IMG/VR virus record: IMGVR_UViG_3300049783_001292
Span: 1 to 56,799 of that record
Length of the DNA stretch: 56,799 nucleotides
Direction: 5' to 3' (one strand)
Origin: a virus
Lineage: Duplodnaviria > Caudoviricetes
This document shows positions 144 through 56,799 of the stretch, piece after piece. Under the pieces are notes generated by a model. The model was given only the letters and a program-made list of their open reading frames with translations. It did no database searches and was not told the origin of the DNA. Within the stretch, counting starts at the first letter, position 1, and each line of letters opens with the position of its first letter. The translations under genes and the position numbers were made by a program.

Positions 144-1334
144 TTATTTCGAGTGCCAGATCGGTGCCATATCGTTCGCTTTTTCCTTTTCTGTTTTCTC
201 GTATGCTTCGATAAAACTGCCGTAATGTCGGAAGATCATTTCCGTATTTTTATGGCCCATCCAGTTCGCTATTTTCCATAAATGCACTTCTTGTGAAATA
301 TGCTTAGTAGCGAAAGTGTGGCGCAATTGATAAGGGTAACGATAGCGAACACCTGCCGCTTTTAATATTCTTGTCTGCCATCTATGCTTTCTGAAACTTT
401 CATGTTCCCACTGTTTGCCCTGATCATTAAGGAAAACATATTCGCTATGTAGGAAGGTTAATTCTTTTTGTCGCTTGAGTGCGGTCAGTGCTTCATCGTT
501 TAACGGAATAAAACGTTTATTTTTGGTCTTGGTCGGTTTGGTGATGCCTTGAGAATATGACTCAACAATTTTCACTTGCTCATGTACAAAGTCTACATCA
601 ACCCATTTTAGCGCGGGCCATTCAGCGGAGCGAACACCAGTATTAACCCAAAATTGTATGATGTTTAATTCTGCCGGTTTACAGCGCTGATAAATTTCCT
701 CTAGCTCTGTTGGGGTGAATACGTCAATATCATCATCATCTTCGTTACGCGCATCAACAATTTTTTGAGTAATGTATTGATTAGTGTTTACCTGGCGTGA
801 TGGATTGAATTGTATTACCTGGTCAGTCACGGCTTGATCTAAAGCAAGATCAAGCACACTTTTCTGATTAGTGATGGTTTTTTGCTTAACGGTTTTGTTT
901 CGCTCTTTGATCCAATTGGCTATTTCTTTCGGTGTGATCTTGGCAACCAAGAGATCATGCAAAGGTTTAAGGGCGTTTTTGCCCTTGATATAACCTTCGA
1001 TAGTGGTGTGGGAAAGTTTACGAACCGTTTCGCCCTGGTGGATAAGCTCTTCTATATAAGAGAGGACGGTTGTTTTACTTGTTGCTACGCCGAATACTTT
1101 AAGCTTTGGCGAGTTAGGGAAGTATTCAGCATAGTGAAAGGTTTCGCGTTCTATGTTGTTTCTGATTTCACCAGCCAAGTTACCGGCCCAGGCAATGTTG
1201 GCCTTTGTAACATCAAGGGCTAATATCTCACGACACCTAACCCCTTTGTAGAAAAAATCAACCCGTATTGATTGACTCTTGGCATTCTCACGAACCGTTA
1301 TGCCGCTCGGAAGCCTCCCCCATTTCTTACCCAT
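144..1334 (-). CDS. int: Tyrosine integrase with N-terminal arm-binding domain
   Basis: TGVRSAE (catalytic Arg), YQLRHTFAT, MGH and terminal HY motifs; adjacent to att. Confidence 0.96.
   Translation of the reverse strand: MGKKWGRLPSGITVRENAKSQSIRVDFFYKGVRCREILALDVTKANIAWAGNLAGEIRNNIERETFHYAEYFPNSPKLKVFGVATSKTTVLSYIEELIHQGETVRKLSHTTIEGYIKGKNALKPLHDLLVAKITPKEIANWIKERNKTVKQKTITNQKSVLDLALDQAVTDQVIQFNPSRQVNTNQYITQKIVDARNEDDDDIDVFTPTELEEIYQRCKPAELNIIQFWVNTGVRSAEWPALKWVDVDFVHEQVKIVESYSQGITKPTKTKNKRFIPLNDEALTALKRQKELTFLHSEYVFLNDQGKQWEHESFRKHRWQTRILKAAGVRYRYPYQLRHTFATKHISQEVHLWKIANWMGHKNTEMIFRHYGSFIEAYEKTEKEKANDMAPIWHSK
149..170. promoter_or_regulatory. Integrase arm-type sites (left arm, inside the int 3' end)
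   Basis: GTGCCAG-ATCGGTGCCAT matches the 11-bp ATCGGTGCCAG repeats at the right end. Confidence 0.7.
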
Positions 1335-38790: not shown

Positions 38791-39378
38791 TTAAAAGCGC
38801 AACCTTACCCCTGCACTTGGTACTAAGGCGTTAATATCACCGTTTTTATACAGGTCTGCACCAAGGGTAATACTAGAATGACCTGTTCGGTAGGCTAGCC
38901 CTATATAGATATGCGCAGCGGCATTAGAATAATCATAGTAATTCGTAAGCTTTACCTGTTCACTAATGTCAGGTTCGGCATTGTAAATTTCTCGGTAATT
39001 ACTGTTCACTGAAACTTCTGAAATCCCGATTTTAGCAATGATATTGAATGGTTCAGTTAAGCTAAATTCTTTTACTACATCTAAAGTGGTCACTTCAAAT
39101 TTTCGCTTAGTGTTAGAGTCAATAACACCGTCCAGGTAAGGTGCGCTAGACCTGCCTATTGTGTCTTTGTATACCGCATAACCTAACTCAAAGCCTAAGC
39201 CTGATGTTGATAACCATCCGGCTTTAAGCTTTACACCTTTTGCTTTTACGTTTGCTTGATTAGTTACATCTATATCTGCCTGGCCTAGACTCACCTCAAG
39301 CACCGTACCGGCAATACTTGATACAGACGTTACGCAAAGAGCGATTACAATCATTATACTGAATAAAATTTTCTTCAT
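38791..39378 (-). CDS. Outer-membrane beta-barrel protein (OmpA/Lom-like moron)
   Basis: Signal peptide MKKILFS...SIA, GFELGY, C-terminal VRLRF; opposite strand to the late genes. Confidence 0.85.
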   Translation of the reverse strand: MKKILFSIMIVIALCVTSVSSIAGTVLEVSLGQADIDVTNQANVKAKGVKLKAGWLSTSGLGFELGYAVYKDTIGRSSAPYLDGVIDSNTKRKFEVTTLDVVKEFSLTEPFNIIAKIGISEVSVNSNYREIYNAEPDISEQVKLTNYYDYSNAAAHIYIGLAYRTGHSSITLGADLYKNGDINALVPSAGVRLRF

Positions 39379-39525
39379 TAGTGCCTCTTCTCTGTTATTA
39401 ATGACAGTTATGTATACAACTACAGTTATTGTATAAAAAATACAGTATACCAAACTATTCATCTAGGTTGAATTGTAAGACTAGATATAGCCAAACCTCC
39501 CGATTTAAGGTAATATTTCACCACT

Positions 39526-51600: not shown

Positions 51601-54301
51601 TATCAATAAGTTTATTCGTACCATTCAAGACAAGTTCAAGCCGTTAAAAACCGTTCAAAATATTATCGAGAAGTCGGGCAAAAAAATATCAGACCAAGAA
51701 AATGCTTATGTTGCTGAAGAGCTATTTCACGGTAAGGCCGAGGAAGATTTGCGCAAGATGGAGCAAGATTATGTTCAGCCGTTAGTGGATGCGCTAATGA
51801 AAAGCAAAGTCGATATGAACGAGTTAGATCTTTATCTAATGGCCAAGCATGCCAAAGAGCGTAACGCCGTAGTCTCGAGTAAGAATGATGCGTTTGATGG
51901 TGAAAGCGGTAGTGGTATGACGAACGACGAAGCGCAAGCGATACTTGATAAAGCAACTGGTGACGGTAGAACAAAGGCGCTTGAAGAAGTCGCGCAAAAA
52001 GTTTACGCCATGACCAAAGCAAGGCGCGATATTTTGAGTAAAAACGGGCTACTAAGTGACAATGAACTTGATAGCTGGGAAAGCACCTATGAAAACTACA
52101 TACCATTAAAAGGCTTTGCTAACGATGAAGTGGACAGTAGTGGCAAGGGTATCCCAAGAGCAGGGCAAGGTTTTGCTATTCGTGGTAATGAGTCAATCAG
52201 GGCGCTAGGTCGCAGAACAATGGCCGCAAGCCCGTCAACGCAAGTTATCCAAGACTTAACCGAGTCAATCATTCGTCATAGAAAAAATGAAGTGGGCAAT
52301 GCGTTTCTTAAGCTTGTTAACGGCAATCCAAATAAAGAGTTCTGGCAAGTATTTACTGACAGCAACCCTGAAATTGACAGACGTTACAACAAGCAAACGG
52401 GGCGCGTAGAAGAAACCAGAATGCCTATGGCTATGATGGCAGATCAATACTTCACAACGAAAGTCGATGGTGAAACGCATTACATTAAGATAGAAGATCA
52501 GCGTTTAATGAGCGCAATGAAAAACTTAGGTGTTGATAAAAGCAATGGTGTTGTTCAAACGTTGGGGACAATCAACCGCTATCTATCGACAATCAACACA
52601 AGTTTTAACCCTGAATTTGTTATCTCCAACATGGCGCGTGATGTTCAAACGGCGGTATTTAACGTATTAGCTGAACAAGACTTGCCACAAGGAAAAATCA
52701 AAGGCAAAAATATTGCTAAGGATATGGTCAAAGGTTGGGTCCATGCGCGTAAAGGTATATCGCTAAGTTTATCGAATAAAAAAATAGAGCGGGACAGTAA
52801 CGGCAAGCCGACAACTAAAGCGGGTGAGTATCAAGAGTTGTTCGAGCAGTTCAGACAAGATGGCGCCAAAACGGGTTATTTTGATATGAAGGATATGGAC
52901 CAGCAAGTCAGTGAAATTAACAACATGCTTGAAATGTCTAGCGACTCTAAAAAAGGTGCAGTATTAAGGTTCGCTAAAAAAGCCGGTGACTTTATCGAAA
53001 ACGCTAACCAGGCGGTAGAAAATGCGGTGAGGTTAAGCGCATATAAAGAAGCCATTGATGCAGGGATCAGCAGACAAAAAGCAGCAAGTTTGGCCAAAAA
53101 CTTAACGGTGAACTTTAACCGTAAAGGTGAAGCCGGTACCACAATGAATGCGCTTTATATGTTCGCTAATGCCAGTGTACAAGGTACGGCGCAATTTTTA
53201 CGCAGCATGCAAGGTTACCGCGACACCGAGGGTAACTATAAATTTACTGGCGCACAAAAAGCAGCCGCAGGGTTTGCCGCTGCCGGTTTTGCTTTAGCGG
53301 CCATTAACCGAGCCTTTTCAGATGAAGATGATGATGGTGTCAGTTTTTGGGACAAAGTACCTGATCATGTAAAAGAGCGAAACATTGTCGTTATGAAGTC
53401 TGTTTTCGGCCAAGATGATAAGCCTGGTGATTATTATTCGATACCGCTACCTTACGGCTATAACATCTTTAGCGTGTTTGGCACATCGGCCGAGAGTGTG
53501 GCCCAGGGAAATAAAACAACAATTGAAGCATCAAGTAATATTGTTGGCGCCTTAATTGGTTCATTCTCGCCTATTGGTTCACAAGGCAGTGGTAGCACGA
53601 TCAATGGTGTGGTCAAGTCTATTAGCCCGACAATTATTTCGCCTTTTGTACAGCTAGCCGTAAACGAAAACTTTTATGGTGGCAGTATTTATCGTGAGAA
53701 TTACGAGTTTGGCACTCAACGACCTGATAGTTCACTCGCTAAACGTGGTACCCATGAAGCTTACAAGGCAGTTGCCTCATGGCTAAACGATGCTACTGGT
53801 GGTAGTTATTATCGTAGTGGTGTTATTGATATAAACCCTGAAGTATTCGCGCATTTAATCGATTTTACTACAGGTGCCGCCGGAACATTTGTTACACGAA
53901 CAGCAAATGCCGGTGCAAAATTATCGAAAGGTGAGGATTTTGATTCTAGAGAGGTGCCTTTTTATCGCAAACTTAATGGTGAGGTTAATGATAGTTGGGG
54001 TGATCAAGATAAATTCTACGAGCGCGGTAACCTAATAAAGCAATCGTTTGACGAGTACAGCTCATTAAAAGGCAGTGACCGCAATGAGTTTAAACGAGAA
54101 AATAAAGGTAAGTTAGTTATGATCAATCACGTTAAGGTCACTGAAAAACAACTAACCGCATTAAGAAAGCGCTATAGAGCGGTAGAAGCAAGCAAAACGA
54201 TTTCAGCTAGCGCCAAGATCAAACAGCTTGAAACTATCAGAAAGCATCAGGACCGATTAGTCGATAAGTTTAACTTGAGGTACAACACTATGAATAAATA
54301 A
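42632..54301 (+). CDS. Giant polyvalent virion protein (DarB-like): PPase domain, N6-adenine MTase, strawberry-notch SF2 helicase, zincin metallopeptidase, LPD38-like C-terminus
   Basis: IENPQGS...GADGDALDV...DEHKIMLG; EPTAGNG and NPPF; GDQTGVGKGR, DESH, SAT, AGSTGLSLH, QMLGRANRTGQ; HETYGHH; IPLPYGY...ENFYG. Confidence 0.9.
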   Translation: MTDLNKYAKDSGYFDQVKPEDDRYEFTKGVTSALSSTVSGGKALVGAVTGDENLQLRSLDDMRQNSTDNAGKVGRIEDIEGVGDFTDWLSYNLGSGTASIATMVAGGGLGGLALKGAAKGALVNAGKTLGATSTGFAPNYGESLQSAYGTTGEIKNQAALASASIKTALDFIVPAKLLKAGIGKEASKEYSEIAKQKMINDKGFVTWAKEALKTGKTEAFTEGLQTYTDQVMNNILTEGDNPLAVRSGSEIFNAMAAGGAGSMGIGAYSGYQQNRNAEALRNQSSDVNGQVDDLWELAQTDEVASKRVNQWQQKRSDVAKTGVRDLIAQGASPEEANAEMRKSLILSAKKQGMSDLNAISSADNALTMTEVEIMQDNAPEFFEELNGSEASVDYDVPTAARNAGAKNDLEAGKFGEALESGEPLTIPNREAPKGKENADYDVPAAARNAGAKNNVEAGKFGDWITSPLQESLGTMKDQTPADMVGEASSNTGYTPQDRTVLEGDVLSKEQSSELVNQRTYTGINGDFIEGESTAAKGKFPTEQEVNQRQGRDKAKADFSEQPAQVTDKNIVYGQDNTREVDGKVAQEKMVDGIKNQPKQITDKNIIFAKDTDELGKVHVKANGKPFKNERLLKISRGYKEAVRQKEPVEVIAHEGGLAWRYQPKSEKSSEATAPISGPKAIDEAAHEAATSPMNDLAEPTIAQAEANNYKLGRIVHSGIKIGIENPQGSYRKGIDGDGKKWSNKINHHYGDVTGSKGADGDALDVFVNPNTESSTNAYIVDQVEPKTGAFDEHKIMLGFDSKDDAEKAYLSNYDKGWKGVGAISEVPIETFKGWVEKGNTIQAYKKPDTPQEQTPQETASQKAVVVSEAKETDVNLTSEGDIPQETDMFGDSAPVEPKSQSKIKIGKIDTDDWAEHLEDADGDIEQAKQDYNDSSLEAIDYGINEIDSIDSPSQVALAADEIQKYIDAGVTGYDEIAVNRILRANKKLNKVQEPETAQDSEPSWKEWMGKDEQAQLSVTARAIGDLEERIVLASEPFSKKKYQKELAERNEQREMLLSGMTIEEILKNQKATETLGGETGVIQGIERTTTESLNDEAEQASGPISGNRKLLDFMVQEIKKSYIANNNDLKAVGKRYYGLEKALDVTPQQLKLLQEAFETVNVIKRRASTQNLLGTLKNKDAAVLKVFNGHVKAYEGQPNLDVRTKKSVEFQAYSTPSPMSFLSNIAAGVDANSTVFEPTAGNGLLLLTSAPENTFANELDPVRADSLAYTGFNVTMKNATNSPFDGWLDGPVDAVLANPPFGRLRDDNGKPTDFTFTDKQGKSRVFKEIDHVIAYQALEAMKDNGKASLILGAPKEASDYKGNNKIFLNWLYQNYNVQHHIEADGKLYKGQGAAWPLQMITINGRALEGTGKFAPIKGQIERLTSWEAIYENYKQSGLLDTNNKQFKLGRKSASNLPDSQGAKVVPLSDRANDTGQSDSGVDGNASSRQARPQAVLPDDRSTGASADASVGFDSQPDIIDTGLVKADSKPKTGRTGNTTSEATDSVGLPGQRPSESIAEQKGHSKAPKQISTKVKKINDFQAEYQTASDGFNDKVLTPVNIASYTQSALIDIQTRHGSIDDFVMARLGYDNKKDLHKAFMGLQADSVALAVDAIEKGRGIIIGDQTGVGKGRQAAGIIRYALENGKTPIFVSQKPNLFTDMYDDLEDVGVKGFTPLIVNQDKGYISKDGKKVFNHSSANRKKLMDKVSANRELPKGYDALFLTYSQISSDKQGTKTSMIDGLLDNAILVMDESHTAAGGASKLGVAFQNFVSKAAGVTYLSATYAKRPDNMLLYMRTDLGLATDNYENLVNAVQNGGLGMQTYIASKLAEAGQMVRRERSFEGISIKDAVIKDASGETAKLFDQTTEALRAIQDTSAYWRSYVERDLANDIQRETGLDTRISGNQSDTAINVTLFSSVVHNYIRQLTLGLKAKESAQLAIKAIKDGKRPVIALESTLGSALKAYMDKYGKVTGDHADSLNFSTMLEAVLDNTLAYSTKEPGEKKGVKTVVSIDAVSDPMVQEMYQQAKAAIKRIDASKIPASPIDTIRHEITKAGYSVAEITGRDLIIDYNDNAKIINRPASEDNRRDTVDRFNTSKLDVIILNQAGSTGLSLHASEKLAKEHQKPRYMVIAEPSLDVNVYMQMLGRANRTGQVVPPSYDNAWLDLPSEKRPAAVIARKMKGLNANTSGNIDSATSVESIDILNEYGDEVVRNYAAENRSMLASYNAKLVSLPEEDAANYFLGKVAVLPVKIQDKVLNEIEAAYKDHIAFLDATGQNQLNTKSLDLEARPISQKIIAESRASAGVFAEPVYLTKVEAKAQGKAPSWSEVSDALAESSQAEFDVATQEMQDDTVYSESLSGRLVQLQEKEAEARSEGKKTDGYATQINGIKERQRDFEADKRQIKNDFSEGGTYSHGAFINVMPNESFEKAVHGVIVGLDYKHETGNPTAKSKWKLKVMVADRMRTIPINLSRAQDGVIQGKRWDSQSNMAKMFDQMSQLPQTETRHIMTGNLVEATTSTAKQGRIVPFSTHDNRVIQGLLLPASFNADEDVKAKSQATTEESVKWLLNVDDDIFASMGLSTNDKAVTVRRKRWEEGYSVEMPKSAAKGKKYWGNEAIEAVIGEQAVKGGGTFSVNLTKEQVMPFAKAMKAINPLSVQGQVQIKSFNKMFGKESNDFAKQDIVFSRDKSAGVVSDSGSVGVSDATTVSQADADIVVDRIISDWDGGSLRKDDFIVVSTFDELPQNIKDAAKDQGAENQVGGVFHRGKTYLVRDKLKDQQEVETTIFHETYGHHGIRKLFGKEIAQKLNQLLVGIGGMKGMDKIAKKYGIDLDAYKEGLAGSTLTNAQAQTILMDELLAHLAENNKPSVMRKVREIIGAVRQWLKNSGFIKLQGVSDSELFYILKQARKAVQGGNGKGGNGDIRFSRVSDVVDKLAPKKQSNTLIANEDEGNINKFIRTIQDKFKPLKTVQNIIEKSGKKISDQENAYVAEELFHGKAEEDLRKMEQDYVQPLVDALMKSKVDMNELDLYLMAKHAKERNAVVSSKNDAFDGESGSGMTNDEAQAILDKATGDGRTKALEEVAQKVYAMTKARRDILSKNGLLSDNELDSWESTYENYIPLKGFANDEVDSSGKGIPRAGQGFAIRGNESIRALGRRTMAASPSTQVIQDLTESIIRHRKNEVGNAFLKLVNGNPNKEFWQVFTDSNPEIDRRYNKQTGRVEETRMPMAMMADQYFTTKVDGETHYIKIEDQRLMSAMKNLGVDKSNGVVQTLGTINRYLSTINTSFNPEFVISNMARDVQTAVFNVLAEQDLPQGKIKGKNIAKDMVKGWVHARKGISLSLSNKKIERDSNGKPTTKAGEYQELFEQFRQDGAKTGYFDMKDMDQQVSEINNMLEMSSDSKKGAVLRFAKKAGDFIENANQAVENAVRLSAYKEAIDAGISRQKAASLAKNLTVNFNRKGEAGTTMNALYMFANASVQGTAQFLRSMQGYRDTEGNYKFTGAQKAAAGFAAAGFALAAINRAFSDEDDDGVSFWDKVPDHVKERNIVVMKSVFGQDDKPGDYYSIPLPYGYNIFSVFGTSAESVAQGNKTTIEASSNIVGALIGSFSPIGSQGSGSTINGVVKSISPTIISPFVQLAVNENFYGGSIYRENYEFGTQRPDSSLAKRGTHEAYKAVASWLNDATGGSYYRSGVIDINPEVFAHLIDFTTGAAGTFVTRTANAGAKLSKGEDFDSREVPFYRKLNGEVNDSWGDQDKFYERGNLIKQSFDEYSSLKGSDRNEFKRENKGKLVMINHVKVTEKQLTALRKRYRAVEASKTISASAKIKQLETIRKHQDRLVDKFNLRYNTMNK

Positions 54302-54386
54302 TGGTGGCGAGGGTGCTTGCTATGACTAGCACACCCCACATTATCCAAAGCGCATATGTTAGACGTTGTAAGTATTTTCTTTTCAT
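54288..54386 (-). CDS. 32-aa single-TM peptide MKRKYLQRLTYALWIMWGVLVIASTLATIIYS, not in the ORF track
   Basis: Translated by hand; TTGCAT-16-TATGAT promoter ends 6 nt before the ATG. Confidence 0.55.
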   Translation of the reverse strand: MKRKYLQRLTYALWIMWGVLVIASTLATIIYS

Positions 54387-54445
54387 ACGTCTATCATAGG
54401 CTTTATATCGAAAAATGCAAAACACTAAACCTATGGGGATATTCA

Positions 54446-55084
54446 CTACATCGACAAGCCTTGCTCTGCTAGTTTATCGACTATCTCTGTCATCATCATT
54501 TTAGTTACCACTTTGTCTTGCAGCAGTGCTAGCATGCCATATCCTTGCAAATGATCTAAGGTCCGAATACTCCTTCCCTGTAAAGCCATGCTAGTTTCAG
54601 GTGTAAGTTTGAGAGTGCTAGTATATACAGTGTCAGGGCCACCACTGACTAACTTTAGTCCATAACTAGATAATAATGCCTCTACGTCGGTAAGCGATGA
54701 TTTACCGAACCCCTCAATCGTTAATAGTTCGAGACTAGAACATAATAACAAGTGGCGTAGTGTGAAAATTCCTTGTTTAACCAGGTGGTTTTTAGTTCTT
54801 GCTGTCAAGTCTAAATCTTCAACAGGCATACTTTCGTCGAAGCCACTAGCGTTAGCTGGTTCTATTTTGCTTTCACTTACAAGGCTTTGTTTTTTAATGT
54901 CCATCAAAAGCTCGAACATGCCGTTCATATTATCAATGGCTTCTTTTATCCAGTAGGTTTTTTCGCTTGAGTAATCTAAGTCCTCAGTTAATTCCTTAGC
55001 TAGTTCGTCAAGCGATTTACAGATAACACCATTATCCGCAAATTTTGGTATTTCATTTAACAGATCAGGTAATTGCTTTTTCAT
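54446..55084 (-). CDS. Novel N-domain plus RNAP alpha-CTD-like domain(s) (paralog 2; start MKKQLP)
   Basis: PVEDLDLTARTKNHL...IFTLRHLL...LLTIEGFGKSSLTDV is a clear alpha-CTD; AAGGA SD. Confidence 0.85.
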   Translation of the reverse strand: MKKQLPDLLNEIPKFADNGVICKSLDELAKELTEDLDYSSEKTYWIKEAIDNMNGMFELLMDIKKQSLVSESKIEPANASGFDESMPVEDLDLTARTKNHLVKQGIFTLRHLLLCSSLELLTIEGFGKSSLTDVEALLSSYGLKLVSGGPDTVYTSTLKLTPETSMALQGRSIRTLDHLQGYGMLALLQDKVVTKMMMTEIVDKLAEQGLSM

Positions 55085-55094
55085 TTTTATTTCC

Positions 55095-56111
55095 TTAGTC
55101 ATTACACATACAAGGCATATCCGAGCCAACATTTAGCTCAGGGTTTGATATTACTTCGCGCCACGAATAACTACGGCCTAGCCCCCTAACCTTTGATGGG
55201 GTCCATATTTTTTCAATAGAAACATAAGCAACAGGTTCGGGCTGCATAAAATCAAGATCAAGACCTCCCCCTTTGACATTTACCTCAATGTCACCAAGTA
55301 GAAAATCAACCTCTTTTTTATCCATATCGGCGATGATACCTATTAAAGAATCATCCTCTATGCGCCGTAATAACTTAGCATCTATATGCCGCCCCCTGGC
55401 ATTGTCCGACTTTAAAAAAGCATCTTCAACTTCTAAAGCCTTTTTTAAAGCTTCAGGTTCGTTAAGTGCCATTTCTCTAATTTCTGGCGCTTTCATGTTA
55501 GGACACATATAACAGCTACTTTTTATCGGCAAAGGTAGTGATGATTTTTTTATTATCTCTATACAATCATCACGGTCAATATCCCAATCCATGAGCGGAT
55601 AAATCACATTGTATTTATCGCAATCAGCATCTTTTCTTCGATGATCCTCACCAGCATCAAAACCAACAACCCTTGTTATCTTGTTTTTGATATCAGTGAG
55701 CTTTCTATATTTCCCCCATGCTTCTTTAGCCGGTAAGTGGTTATTAATAAAAATATCAACTTGCTCAACCTTGAAGCGTAACGAACAGCTTTTACCTGCA
55801 AAAGCTGGGGGTGGTAAAGTGGAGGATTTAAGGCATAGTTCATGGAGCTTAACTTGCTCCTTTGTTTTTCCGTCACGCACATGACAGCGTTTTATTTGAG
55901 GCCAACCAATAGAGAGTAGCCAATTATTTATAATGGTTAAATGTTGGTAAGTTCTTTCGCGCTCTGATCCTGTGTCAGCAAAGACAATTAAATCAGGTTT
56001 TTTTAATCCGCGAGAAAACCATTCTAATATCAGTGCGGTGAAATTAACCCCACCACCACAAGTTAAAACGGTAAAGTTGTTTTGCTGTAAAGCCTGTTCA
56101 GTCGTTAGCAT
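55095..56111 (-). CDS. PAPS-reductase/DndC-like PP-loop protein with Cys cluster
   Basis: CGGGVNFTAL, VFADTGSE, CSLRFK, GFDAGE, YPL, SSCYMCP. Confidence 0.85.
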   Translation of the reverse strand: MLTTEQALQQNNFTVLTCGGGVNFTALILEWFSRGLKKPDLIVFADTGSERERTYQHLTIINNWLLSIGWPQIKRCHVRDGKTKEQVKLHELCLKSSTLPPPAFAGKSCSLRFKVEQVDIFINNHLPAKEAWGKYRKLTDIKNKITRVVGFDAGEDHRRKDADCDKYNVIYPLMDWDIDRDDCIEIIKKSSLPLPIKSSCYMCPNMKAPEIREMALNEPEALKKALEVEDAFLKSDNARGRHIDAKLLRRIEDDSLIGIIADMDKKEVDFLLGDIEVNVKGGGLDLDFMQPEPVAYVSIEKIWTPSKVRGLGRSYSWREVISNPELNVGSDMPCMCND

Positions 56112-56130
56112 GGGAACCCTTTTTGATAAT

Positions 56131-56194
56131 ATTACTATGTAATCAACTCTACATGATTAATATGTAATCATCAATATAAATTACTATGTAATCA
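56131..56194. promoter_or_regulatory. Three palindromic operators ATTA(C/A)TATGTAATC between divergent genes
   Basis: Copies at 56131, 56156 and 56180. Confidence 0.75.
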
Positions 56195-56246
56195 GTATTT
56201 AATTTGATAAAGTATTTGTAATGGTTCAAAAGTAGAGATTAACACA

Positions 56247-56465
56247 TTGGTAAGCGATGAACGCAAGAGGCAAATAGCCGCCGCTGTAAAAGCACATAGA
56301 GAAAAGCAGAAAAAGGAGTCTGGTAGAAAACAGGTTCCTTTAATGCTGACTGATATTGATCGCGAAAATATGTCTACTATAAAGGAAAGGGAGGTCAGTG
56401 TTAAAAATCAGGGTGAAGCTGTTAGTGCGGCTCTCTCTGAATACGTGAAAAAGTACGACAGCTAA
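56247..56465 (+). CDS. Small DNA-binding protein, probably ribbon-helix-helix
   Basis: Basic N-terminal helix, then KQVPLML strand plus two helices (NQGEAVSAAL). Confidence 0.65.
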   Translation: MVSDERKRQIAAAVKAHREKQKKESGRKQVPLMLTDIDRENMSTIKEREVSVKNQGEAVSAALSEYVKKYDS

Positions 56466-56488
56466 AACCCGAAGTTTACCCTGAAATC

Positions 56489-56618
56489 ATCGGTGCCAGA
56501 TCGGTGCCAGATCGGTGCCATAAAATTTTTTGCCCTGTATGTATGATCATGATGATCATACGATCAGTTTTGGCCCTTTCAGCCCTTTAAAAATGTATCG
56601 GTGCCAGATCGGTGCCAG
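56489..56618. promoter_or_regulatory. Integrase arm-type sites (right arm): ATCGGTGCCAG x3 and x2
   Basis: 11-bp tandem units at 56489-56521 and 56597-56618. Confidence 0.75.
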
Positions 56619-56623
56619 ATTAA

Positions 56624-56728
56624 ATGTAGTTACAGTGTAGTTGAGGTGCGTTTTATATGAAAAAACCCTTTAAAAACAAGCGCTTTTAAAGGGTTTTGTG
56701 TGGTGGAGCGGGGGGGAATCGAACCCCC
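56624..56728. repeat. Right att direct repeat
   Basis: Identical to 1-105. Confidence 0.95.
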
Positions 56729-56799
56729 GTCCGAAAAGCCTACATCCTTGGTACTACATGCTTAGTCGATCATTTATTTAACCACTTGGACGCCAACCG
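56701..56799 (-). ncRNA. ssrA: tmRNA 3' portion (truncated by the window edge)
   Basis: Reverse complement reads GACTAAGCATGTAGTACCAAGGATGTAGG...TTCGATT...CTCCACCA, matching the gammaproteobacterial tmRNA 3' end. Confidence 0.93.

Follow-up and report, generated by a model that had tools for sequence, protein, structure and literature searches.

A three-gene cassette with a PAPS/APS-reductase-fold enzyme and an alpha-CTD protein beside the attachment site of an ssrA-integrated phage

Genes and operator-like repeats of the cassette

The DNA analyzed here, IMG/VR record IMGVR_UViG_3300049783_001292 (56,799 nucleotides, the whole of which we call the window), is a provirus of 56.8 kb. Close to its right end, between the last late gene and the attR site in ssrA, lies a small cassette (Table 1). 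One gene encodes a regulator of 72 amino acids; the other two, divergent from it, form an operon for an enzyme with the fold of 3'-phosphoadenosine 5'-phosphosulfate (PAPS) and adenosine 5'-phosphosulfate (APS) reductases and for a protein that carries a homologue of the C-terminal domain of the RNA polymerase alpha subunit (alpha-CTD). An earlier interpretation made from the nucleotide letters (the sequence-only reading) had described a divergent regulator and a two-gene operon with a 10-bp gap beside att, and all of these elements were located. The stop codon of the enzyme gene (55095-55097) and the next ATG (55082-55084) leave a 10-bp gap with an AGGA-like ribosome-binding site. The whole frame of the alpha-CTD gene covers 54446-55132 (minus strand, 228 amino acids); the shorter form given in Table 1 is identical to protein-collection cluster P0035, with the same length. 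The G+C content of the cassette is 39%, versus 42.5% for the phage.

Table 1. Positions of the cassette genes and of other features in the window
Feature	Position	Strand	Basis and remarks
Regulator gene, 72 amino acids	56247-56465	+	Open reading frame, TTG start; divergent from the operon
PAPS/APS-reductase-fold PP-loop enzyme gene, 338 amino acids	55095-56111	-	Open reading frame
alpha-CTD protein gene, 212 amino acids	54446-55084	-	Likely ATG start at 55084
Three operator-like palindromes	56131-56194		Palindrome scan; ATTACTATGTAATCA at 56131 and 56180, ATTAATATGTAATCA at 56156
Possible two-helix membrane protein gene, 52 amino acids (uncertain)	54288-54446	-	Open reading frame call
Right cassette boundary: five ATCGGTGCCAG 11-mers on both sides of a palindrome, followed by the att repeat of 105 bp	56478-56728		Repeat and motif scans, tmRNA match
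Integrase gene	144-1334	-	PHROG profile
Paralogue of the alpha-CTD protein, 158 amino acids	14682-15158	+	Directly after the Q-like antiterminator gene
Last late gene, giant protein of 3889 amino acids	42632-54301	+	
3' part of the tmRNA gene	56701-56799	-	71 bits; right end of the window

The divergent intergenic region is 135 bp long (56112-56246) with 24% G+C, and it holds three copies of an operator-like motif of the form ATTACnnnGTAAT. Each 15-mer is an ATTAC/GTAAT inverted repeat around 3 bp, with one mismatch in the middle copy, and the copies are spaced by 25 and 24 bp, as had been noticed before. Searched as ATTACWATGTAAT with at most one mismatch, the motif gave three matches in the 56.8 kb, all of them in this spacer, where 0.27 were expected; three matches were reached in 1 of 100 shuffled sequences. 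Its confinement to the spacer within the window fits local control, and agrees with the earlier proposal that the cassette is regulated separately. In IMG/VR, the 15-mer gave at least 118 single chance matches, and none of the 80 loci searched encoded the regulator, the enzyme or the partner.

By eye, a candidate promoter of the enzyme gene was recognized on the minus strand (TTGATG at 56169-56174, 17 bases, TAGAGT at 56146-56151; 8 of 12 positions, weakly sigma-70-like). One operator would lie over its -35/-10 spacer and another over the start region. A consensus promoter scan did not list this site. The best sigma-70-like site of the region (TTAACA, 17 bases, TATAGT; 10 of 12 positions) is at 56404-56376 on the minus strand, inside the regulator gene, antisense to it and directed toward the enzyme operon.

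The regulator is small and basic. Eight clusters of homologues (60-76% identity) share an invariant GRKQVPL..D..NQGEAVS core, and the alignment shows a basic N-terminal helix, a strand-like stretch at GRKQVPL and a turn-helix at NQGEAVS. This strand-helix-NQG-helix pattern fits a ribbon-helix-helix (RHH) protein without proving it. By ESM Atlas features, the nearest clusters were RHH_1/CopG/RepB (0.93), a lead-level match; 162 features are shared, fewer than the 170 that same-family matches typically have. There was no Pfam match, the only signal being VapB-like at E 0.2, and searches of PDB with the single sequence and with a nine-sequence profile retrieved no RHH chain. The regulator is probably an RHH protein, an assignment that is weakly supported; of the earlier claim of an RHH regulator, the divergent gene stands, and as to the fold it is the language-model features that point to RHH/CopG. 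A homologue of the regulator (P0192) and a 77%-identical homologue of the enzyme (P0003) come from one source, each on a contig of 1562 bases, which suggests that regulator and enzyme travel together.

The cassette occupies a variable slot next to the attachment site

PHROG profiles identified, besides the integrase, genes for RecE/RecT-like recombination and replication, a Q-like antiterminator, lysis, terminase, portal and head proteins, and internal virion and tail proteins of the podovirus type. An exact 105-bp direct repeat (positions 1-105 and 56624-56728) spans the 3' end of ssrA, a terminator hairpin (56662-56697) and about 38 bp further; these copies are attL and attR of a phage integrated in ssrA, encoding transfer-messenger RNA (tmRNA). 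A length of 105 bp is long for an att core. The phage is temperate, podovirus-like and ssrA-integrated. Beside attR, the ATCGGTGCCAG 11-mers form two clusters at 56489-56618 with a 21-bp palindrome (56541-56561) between them, and next to the integrase gene there is a sixth copy (160-170), which has one mismatch. The 11-mers are probable arm sites of the integrase.

In the circular form of the phage, the position of the cassette corresponds to the slot between the late genes and attP/int. Seven IMG/VR loci were fetched from related phages, with 38-51% identity to the C-terminus of the giant protein. Between the giant gene and the integrase they carry other small genes, and none of the seven encodes the enzyme, the alpha-CTD protein or the regulator. 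The cassette is therefore variable, swappable cargo, as the earlier description of a self-contained terminal module had implied.

After the operon there is a possible short membrane gene (Table 1), whose GTG overlaps the stop codon of the alpha-CTD gene by one base and which also overlaps the end of the giant gene. Relatives have a converging membrane open reading frame (ORF) of 100-120 amino acids in the same place, with 12-24% identity in the alignment.

The enzyme has the fold of PAPS/APS reductases

An AlphaFold2 model of the enzyme had a mean pLDDT of 89. In a structural search with this model (VIA-align), the best matches were PAPS/APS reductases (Z 11.3-12.1, about 170-180 residues, 13-16% identity), namely 7rge (Z 12.1, root-mean-square deviation 3.9, 171 residues aligned), 6vpu (Z 11.7) and APS reductases (Z 11.3-11.6). 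They were followed by CysD (Z 10.7), the Fe-S tRNA thiolases NcsA (Z 10.5) and TtuA (Z 9.9), TilS (Z 9.3-9.6), LarE (Z 9.5) and ThiI (Z 7.9). Foldseek agreed on the PAPS/APS-reductase fold with probability 1.00. On the basis of the model, we are confident in assigning the enzyme to this fold within the PP-loop (adenine nucleotide alpha hydrolase) superfamily, which upholds the PAPS-reductase-like fold named in the sequence-only reading. Profile searches gave matches to phrog_424 'PAPS reductase' (5.5e-23) and to the SspD profile of PADLOC (9.1e-8, residues 16-235); an NCBIfam scan gave one unrelated match (0.24).

The canonical PP-loop motif, after strand 1, is of the SGGxDST type. The enzyme has a variant of it at residues 18-24, CGGGVNF (CGGGVNFT), as noted earlier. 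In a 24-sequence alignment of the wider family the motif reads G-x-G-V-[N/D]-S-T, and Asn is common at the Asp position across the family. Residues C109, C200 and C203 are invariant in the 24 members and in ten close homologues (61-84% identity), and the protein ends in a CxC (CMC) tail, of which the tail cysteine recurs. The cysteine pattern fits an Fe-S centre. An insertion of about 65 amino acids precedes the conserved GLGR; it had been noticed before and is found only in the 7 rows of the close clade. A MarR-like assignment of the insertion was dropped, as E 0.0026 was too weak and the secondary structure of the model did not match it.

The enzyme belongs to a large mobile-element family that adjoins DNA enzymes

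A profile was built from the 24 family members and searched against 1.84 billion cluster representatives. It recovered 8170 representatives at E<=1e-3, 4943 at E<=1e-10 and 993 at E<=1e-30. Family members occur at more than 424 loci in IMG/VR and in 133 records of a plasmid collection, 64 of them conjugative. Cultured phages of Vibrio, Pseudoalteromonas, Salmonella, Pseudomonas, Klebsiella and others carry the family as well; among them, only Vibrio phage vB_VpP_BT-1011 gave a full-length match, which was confirmed in BFVD (E 5.7e-18). Scans of genome contigs with the enzyme gave no match. Some long family members match PF01507 weakly (9.2e-6 to 7.8e-4). The sequence-only reading had suggested an undescribed unit. 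Given the very large size of the family and its coverage in the literature, 'undescribed' overstates the case. Few unexplained enzymes are as common on mobile elements as the 'PAPS reductases' of phages and plasmids, which are usually filed as auxiliary genes of sulfur metabolism.

We surveyed the neighbourhoods of the best 80 IMG/VR loci; same-strand neighbours were called in 79, the remaining locus having no ORF for the enzyme. A Pfam scan of the 130 adjacent ORFs (67 downstream, 63 upstream) found a DNA methylase domain above the Pfam cut-off in nine (C5, N6/N4 and D12 types, and two SNF2-methylase fusions) and Dam below the cut-off in one more. Other neighbours among the 130 encode RusA, a RecA-dependent nuclease, PD-(D/E)XK, DnaB, an IstB-like loader, DNA polymerase A, dUTPase and terminase, and at four loci, which resemble integrative and conjugative elements, there are NlpC/P60 and CD1107-like genes. 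The family member of Pseudoalteromonas phage KB12-38 directly follows a methyltransferase gene and precedes a ligase-like one, and another PAPS reductase is encoded nearby. A Jersey-like Salmonella phage has it as a lone gene, surrounded by structural genes and transcribed in the other direction. A cytosine methylase gene lies directly downstream of the family member on a Pseudomonas plasmid, and on other plasmids SSB, ParB and DUF3768 genes surround it. On sphingomonad plasmids (3 of the 6 plasmid neighbourhoods viewed), a DUF3768 gene directly follows the enzyme homologue; one of these plasmids has a second gene of the PAPS-reductase family 3 kb away.

Among 26 long family members, three are joined with a polyvalent-type inorganic pyrophosphatase (InPase), two with a helix-turn-helix (HTH) domain and one with an N6/N4 DNA methylase. 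In P0074, P0138 and P0155 (612-2459 amino acids), a PAPS-reductase-like domain stands together with the polyvalent-type InPase; P0074 shares 34% identity with the enzyme (3e-39), and between its InPase and that of the giant protein of the phage the identity is 35%. The pyrophosphatase fusions suggest an ATP-dependent reaction that releases pyrophosphate. In the retrieved text of a 2017 survey of polyvalent proteins (PMC5512222), the terms 'PAPS' and 'PP-loop' do not occur. A general rule that InPase accompanies the enzyme was rejected, as was the rule that a small DNA-binding protein always follows it: a solid HTH match was found in 1 of 52 further downstream ORFs (GerE) and a weak one in another. 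One phage record annotates a winged-HTH gene downstream of a family member.

These data bear on two alternative functions. In the first, the gene would serve sulfur assimilation as an auxiliary, and its product, an Fe-S APS/PAPS reductase, would raise the supply of sulfite and cysteine during infection or lysogeny. The closest structural matches of the enzyme are indeed these reductases, its CxxC pattern resembles that of Fe-S APS reductases and its cysteine tail that of CysH, and PHROG and record annotations name its relatives PAPS reductases. However, neither PF01507 nor NCBIfam cysH matched the enzyme at E<=1, identity to the solved reductases is low, no other cys genes were found in the window, and the neighbours and fusion partners of the family are DNA enzymes, HTH domains and pyrophosphatase rather than proteins of sulfur metabolism. 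PAPS reduction releases no pyrophosphate, so that the pyrophosphatase fusions imply a different chemistry and count against this function as well. The enzyme resembles CysH in structure and in its flexible C-terminal tail with a cysteine, and departs from it in profile matches and genetic setting. We regard a sulfur-assimilation role as very improbable.

A second possibility is an enzyme of RNA thiolation or a related modification, probably acting on tRNA in the manner of TtuA, NcsA or TtcA, which would retune translation or escape tRNA-targeting defences. The similarities to NcsA, TtuA, TilS and ThiI speak for it, and a three-cysteine Fe-S signature is typical of thiolases of the TtuA/NcsA type. 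The thiolases scored below the PAPS/APS reductases, however, the window contains no tRNA genes, and the family sits in a context of DNA replication and modification with fusions to a DNA methylase and HTH domains. Thiolation of tRNA is distinctly unlikely.

The alpha-CTD protein is a probable lineage-specific companion

With PF03118, the 212-amino-acid protein scored 47.1 bits (cut-off 23.8, E 2e-12), and it matched 47 RpoA sequences in PDB at E<=0.01 (best 4.7e-8). Residues 86-145 align to residues 254-314 of Escherichia coli alpha, and identity to bacterial alpha-CTDs is about 31-35%. In RNA polymerase alpha, R265, N268, G296 and S299 contact UP-element DNA; their equivalents are kept (R96, N99, G127 and S130), and the equivalent of K298 is Ser. 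By sequence comparison, the alpha-CTD homology is solid, and the earlier identification of the second protein holds.

The protein consists of a helical N-terminal domain (about residues 1-69), a linker of low confidence, the alpha-CTD (about 82-145) and 70 C-terminal residues with no assigned fold; the AlphaFold2 model is confident for residues 81-145 only. That the last 70 residues form a tandem alpha-CTD was rejected, with no Pfam match and no BLASTP similarity to the first. An Atlas search with the N-terminal domain gave no usable match. Unlike RNA polymerase alpha, the protein is phage-encoded, lacks the alpha N-terminal domain and has an extra tail of 70 amino acids; it has instead a helical N-terminal domain of 70 amino acids that is common to a second phage protein. 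This paralogue (Table 1) is 71% identical over its first 70 residues, has a weak alpha-CTD (18.6 bits) and, as read from the alignment, acidic residues at the equivalents of R265 and N268.

Relatives of the alpha-CTD protein formed four other clusters in 5.8 billion proteins, and none was found in phages, IMG/VR or plasmids. An alpha-CTD was present in 0 of the 130 adjacent ORFs and 0 of the 52 ORFs further downstream, and a local hidden Markov model of the alpha-CTD family matched none of 3663 ORFs. Of 82 viral records with the enzyme, one had a PF03118 match above the cut-off, located about 14 kb from the enzyme gene. In the closest homologue with readable downstream DNA (61% identical), a different gene of 79 amino acids is found at that place. 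The one repeat of the pairing was on Acinetobacter indicus plasmid pB18-1 (4995-6928), where a family member (39% identity) and a gene for a 230-amino-acid alpha-CTD protein converge at a distance of about 470 bp; this protein has a different, HTH-like N-terminus and a C-terminal alpha-CTD, and is otherwise unrelated to the cassette protein. An identical segment with the same pair occurs on a second Acinetobacter plasmid, and this pair was the only such case in the six plasmid neighbourhoods viewed. With about 90 neighbourhoods inspected and an alpha-CTD in about 1 of 80 viral records, one extra co-location is, by a rough estimate, within chance. Complex prediction for the enzyme and the alpha-CTD protein scored 0.00 in two runs, a result that counts neither way.

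The pairing of enzyme and alpha-CTD is mostly not conserved. Of the earlier proposal of a modifying enzyme coupled to a mimic of RNA polymerase, the role in nucleic-acid modification is retained as the best reading, and the coupling is left unsupported by the gene neighbourhoods. We infer that the alpha-CTD protein is a lineage-specific add-on and not a defining partner of the enzyme.

A function in transcription has to be weighed at this point. IbrA and IbrB, a PAPS-reductase-like protein with a ParB-like partner, are co-activators of prophage genes; by analogy, the two proteins of the operon could be a transcription-control pair, in which a 'mini-alpha' competes for UP elements or activators and the enzyme serves as co-regulator. 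The genuine alpha-CTD homology with its DNA-contact residues, the paralogue directly after the Q-like gene, the N-terminal HTH of some family members and the pair on the Acinetobacter plasmid are in line with it. Against it stand the near absence of alpha-CTD genes around family members and the estimate that the extra co-location is within chance; moreover, Pfam found no ParB domain in the three proteins of the module, and Pfam and NCBIfam gave no IbrA-type profile match, with no direct comparison to IbrA itself. A control pair of this kind has a small chance of being correct. The same low probability applies to a more elaborate version, in which the 212-amino-acid protein would be a dimerising helical domain joined by a linker to a DNA-binding alpha-CTD, occupying UP elements or capturing activators that contact alpha. 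The repressor-gated unit with the enzyme would then couple DNA marking with redirection of host transcription, and the paralogue after the Q-like gene would be a non-binding partner or antagonist. In a narrow literature search we found no description of phage-borne alpha-CTD homologues; if they are decoys, they would represent a new way to touch host transcription.

A candidate switchable unit for nucleic-acid modification

We interpret the locus as a repressor-gated accessory cassette in a variable slot beside attP, whose enzyme modifies nucleic acid in the conflict between phage and host, and we put the probability of this interpretation at roughly one half. A nucleic-acid-modifying role in defence or counter-defence is the best reading of the comparative data and matches published suggestions. 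The observations of the sequence-only reading are confirmed in general, and its interpretation is partly supported.

In the mechanism that we propose, the regulator, probably as an RHH dimer, would bind the three ATTACnnnGTAAT sites and repress the divergent promoter region, and the operon would be on only after repression is relieved, as with the small regulators of phage counter-defence operons. The enzyme would hold a [4Fe-4S] centre on C109, C200 and C203 and use ATP to adenylate nucleic acid, most likely DNA, with release of pyrophosphate. Sulfur or another group might then be transferred via the flexible C-terminal cysteine tail, as with DndC and SspD. The outcome would be a changed modification of phage or lysogen DNA that evades or sets up restriction-type immunity. 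The alpha-CTD protein, a putative minor-groove DNA binder, may bring the enzyme to DNA or act separately on transcription.

The published parallels lie in fold and setting. The accessible text of PMC13551039 reports 'several instances' of PAPS reductases, predicted homologues of DndC/SspD, in operons under small Aca regulators; these genes cluster in variable regions that are counter-defence hotspots, and Aca14 is an RHH regulator that binds inverted repeats in a promoter. In the available part of a preprint by Piel et al. (10.1101/2021.05.05.442762), two genes, one encoding a PAPS-Dam fusion (p0018) from Vibrio crassostreae podoviruses, let a Vibrio podovirus grow on a Dnd host. In common with these proteins, the window enzyme has a phage-borne PAPS-reductase fold, a variable region, a small regulator and inverted repeats at the promoter, and, as in the PAPS-Dam fusion, members of its family adjoin or are fused with DNA methylases. 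It differs from them in the lack of a methylase domain, the insertion of its clade, the alpha-CTD partner, the divergent regulator and the three operators.

According to the accessible text of PMC10853773, three cysteines of the PP-loop enzyme DndC hold a 4Fe-4S centre. The window enzyme is like DndC and SspD in its PP-loop/PAPS-reductase fold, in cysteines that fit a three-cysteine [4Fe-4S] centre and in the SspD profile match. Unlike in Dnd and Ssp systems, no DndA/D/E or SspA/B/C partners were found in the window; in addition, no DndC-type cysteine dyad was identified in the enzyme, which has the CxC tail instead.

The regulatory layout recalls the Aca14 region, with a small, probably RHH protein and palindromic operators over the promoter of a short accessory operon. 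It may also be likened to the immI region of P22 (Mnt/Arc-Ant), an accessory region controlled by small repressors apart from the main immunity. No sequence similarity to either region was shown, and the cassette differs from both in its three evenly spaced operators and in a cargo of enzyme and alpha-CTD protein with no antirepressor or anti-CRISPR.

Several points weigh against the interpretation as a modification cassette. Neither PF01507 nor cysH (E<=1) nor the DndC profile of PADLOC matched the enzyme. The GGGVNFT loop of its clade has Asn-Phe where the canonical motif, and DndC, have Asp-Ser, and ATP use could thereby be weakened. No cysteine desulfurase and no Dnd/Ssp partner was present among the 48 window ORFs of at least 80 amino acids (PADLOC, E<=1e-5), nor did a PHROG scan of 47 window ORFs reveal a Dnd/Ssp component; the earlier remark that other cys or dnd genes are missing was thereby borne out. 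Only one of 82 viral records with the enzyme has InPase, while three of six relatives of the phage have it without the enzyme. The anti-Dnd PAPS-Dam protein was not among the 51 phage records matched at E<=1, the inclusion of that phage in the collection being uncertain, so that the kinship would be at the level of the superfamily. The modification activity, the ATPase and the Fe-S centre of the family are predictions, as are the RHH fold of the regulator and its interaction with the repeats.

Lastly, a gene on the att side, on the strand opposite to the late genes, could equally serve the lysogen in defence or exclusion. The cassette would then be a prophage defence, exclusion or toxin-antitoxin-like unit, with an enzyme that harms incoming phage or the cell itself and is restrained by the alpha-CTD protein or the regulator. 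Its place and strand are those of a typical prophage moron; RHH proteins are common as antitoxins, and the regulator gave the weak VapB-like signal; a small membrane gene possibly follows the operon, and the copy on the Acinetobacter plasmid lies near a DUF2357 gene. In type II toxin-antitoxin systems, however, antitoxin and toxin are co-transcribed, usually with the antitoxin first. Here 135 bp separate the regulator gene from the start of the operon, which is on the other strand, and the regulator is not co-transcribed upstream of a toxin; the type II layout is thus absent, and the toxin-antitoxin-like option of the sequence-only reading is not supported. PADLOC matched no system except SspD, weakly. 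Most members of the family lie among the replication and modification genes of phages, virulent or temperate, and on conjugative plasmids, a distribution that counter-defence fits better. We consider a unit serving the lysogen unlikely.

The context of the family points to nucleic-acid modification in conflict with host immunity, and the cassette, made up of one enzyme, a candidate helper that would bind DNA and a switch of their own, is compact enough that it could serve as a test case for finding the substrate and chemistry of the family.

Other features of the phage

The giant protein encoded by the last late gene is a polyvalent protein, with an InPase domain at residues 702-835 (1.6e-50), an Sbno-like helicase (AAA_34 and Helicase_C_4) and LPD38; an NPPF-type N6-methylase motif was recognized by eye. 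By analogy, it is probably injected along with the DNA, as the accessible text of PMC5512222 proposes for polyvalent proteins. A lone minus-strand ORF of 223 amino acids (38791-39462) among the tail genes gave a weak match to an outer-membrane beta-barrel (E 0.0016, below the cut-off) and is a possible moron.

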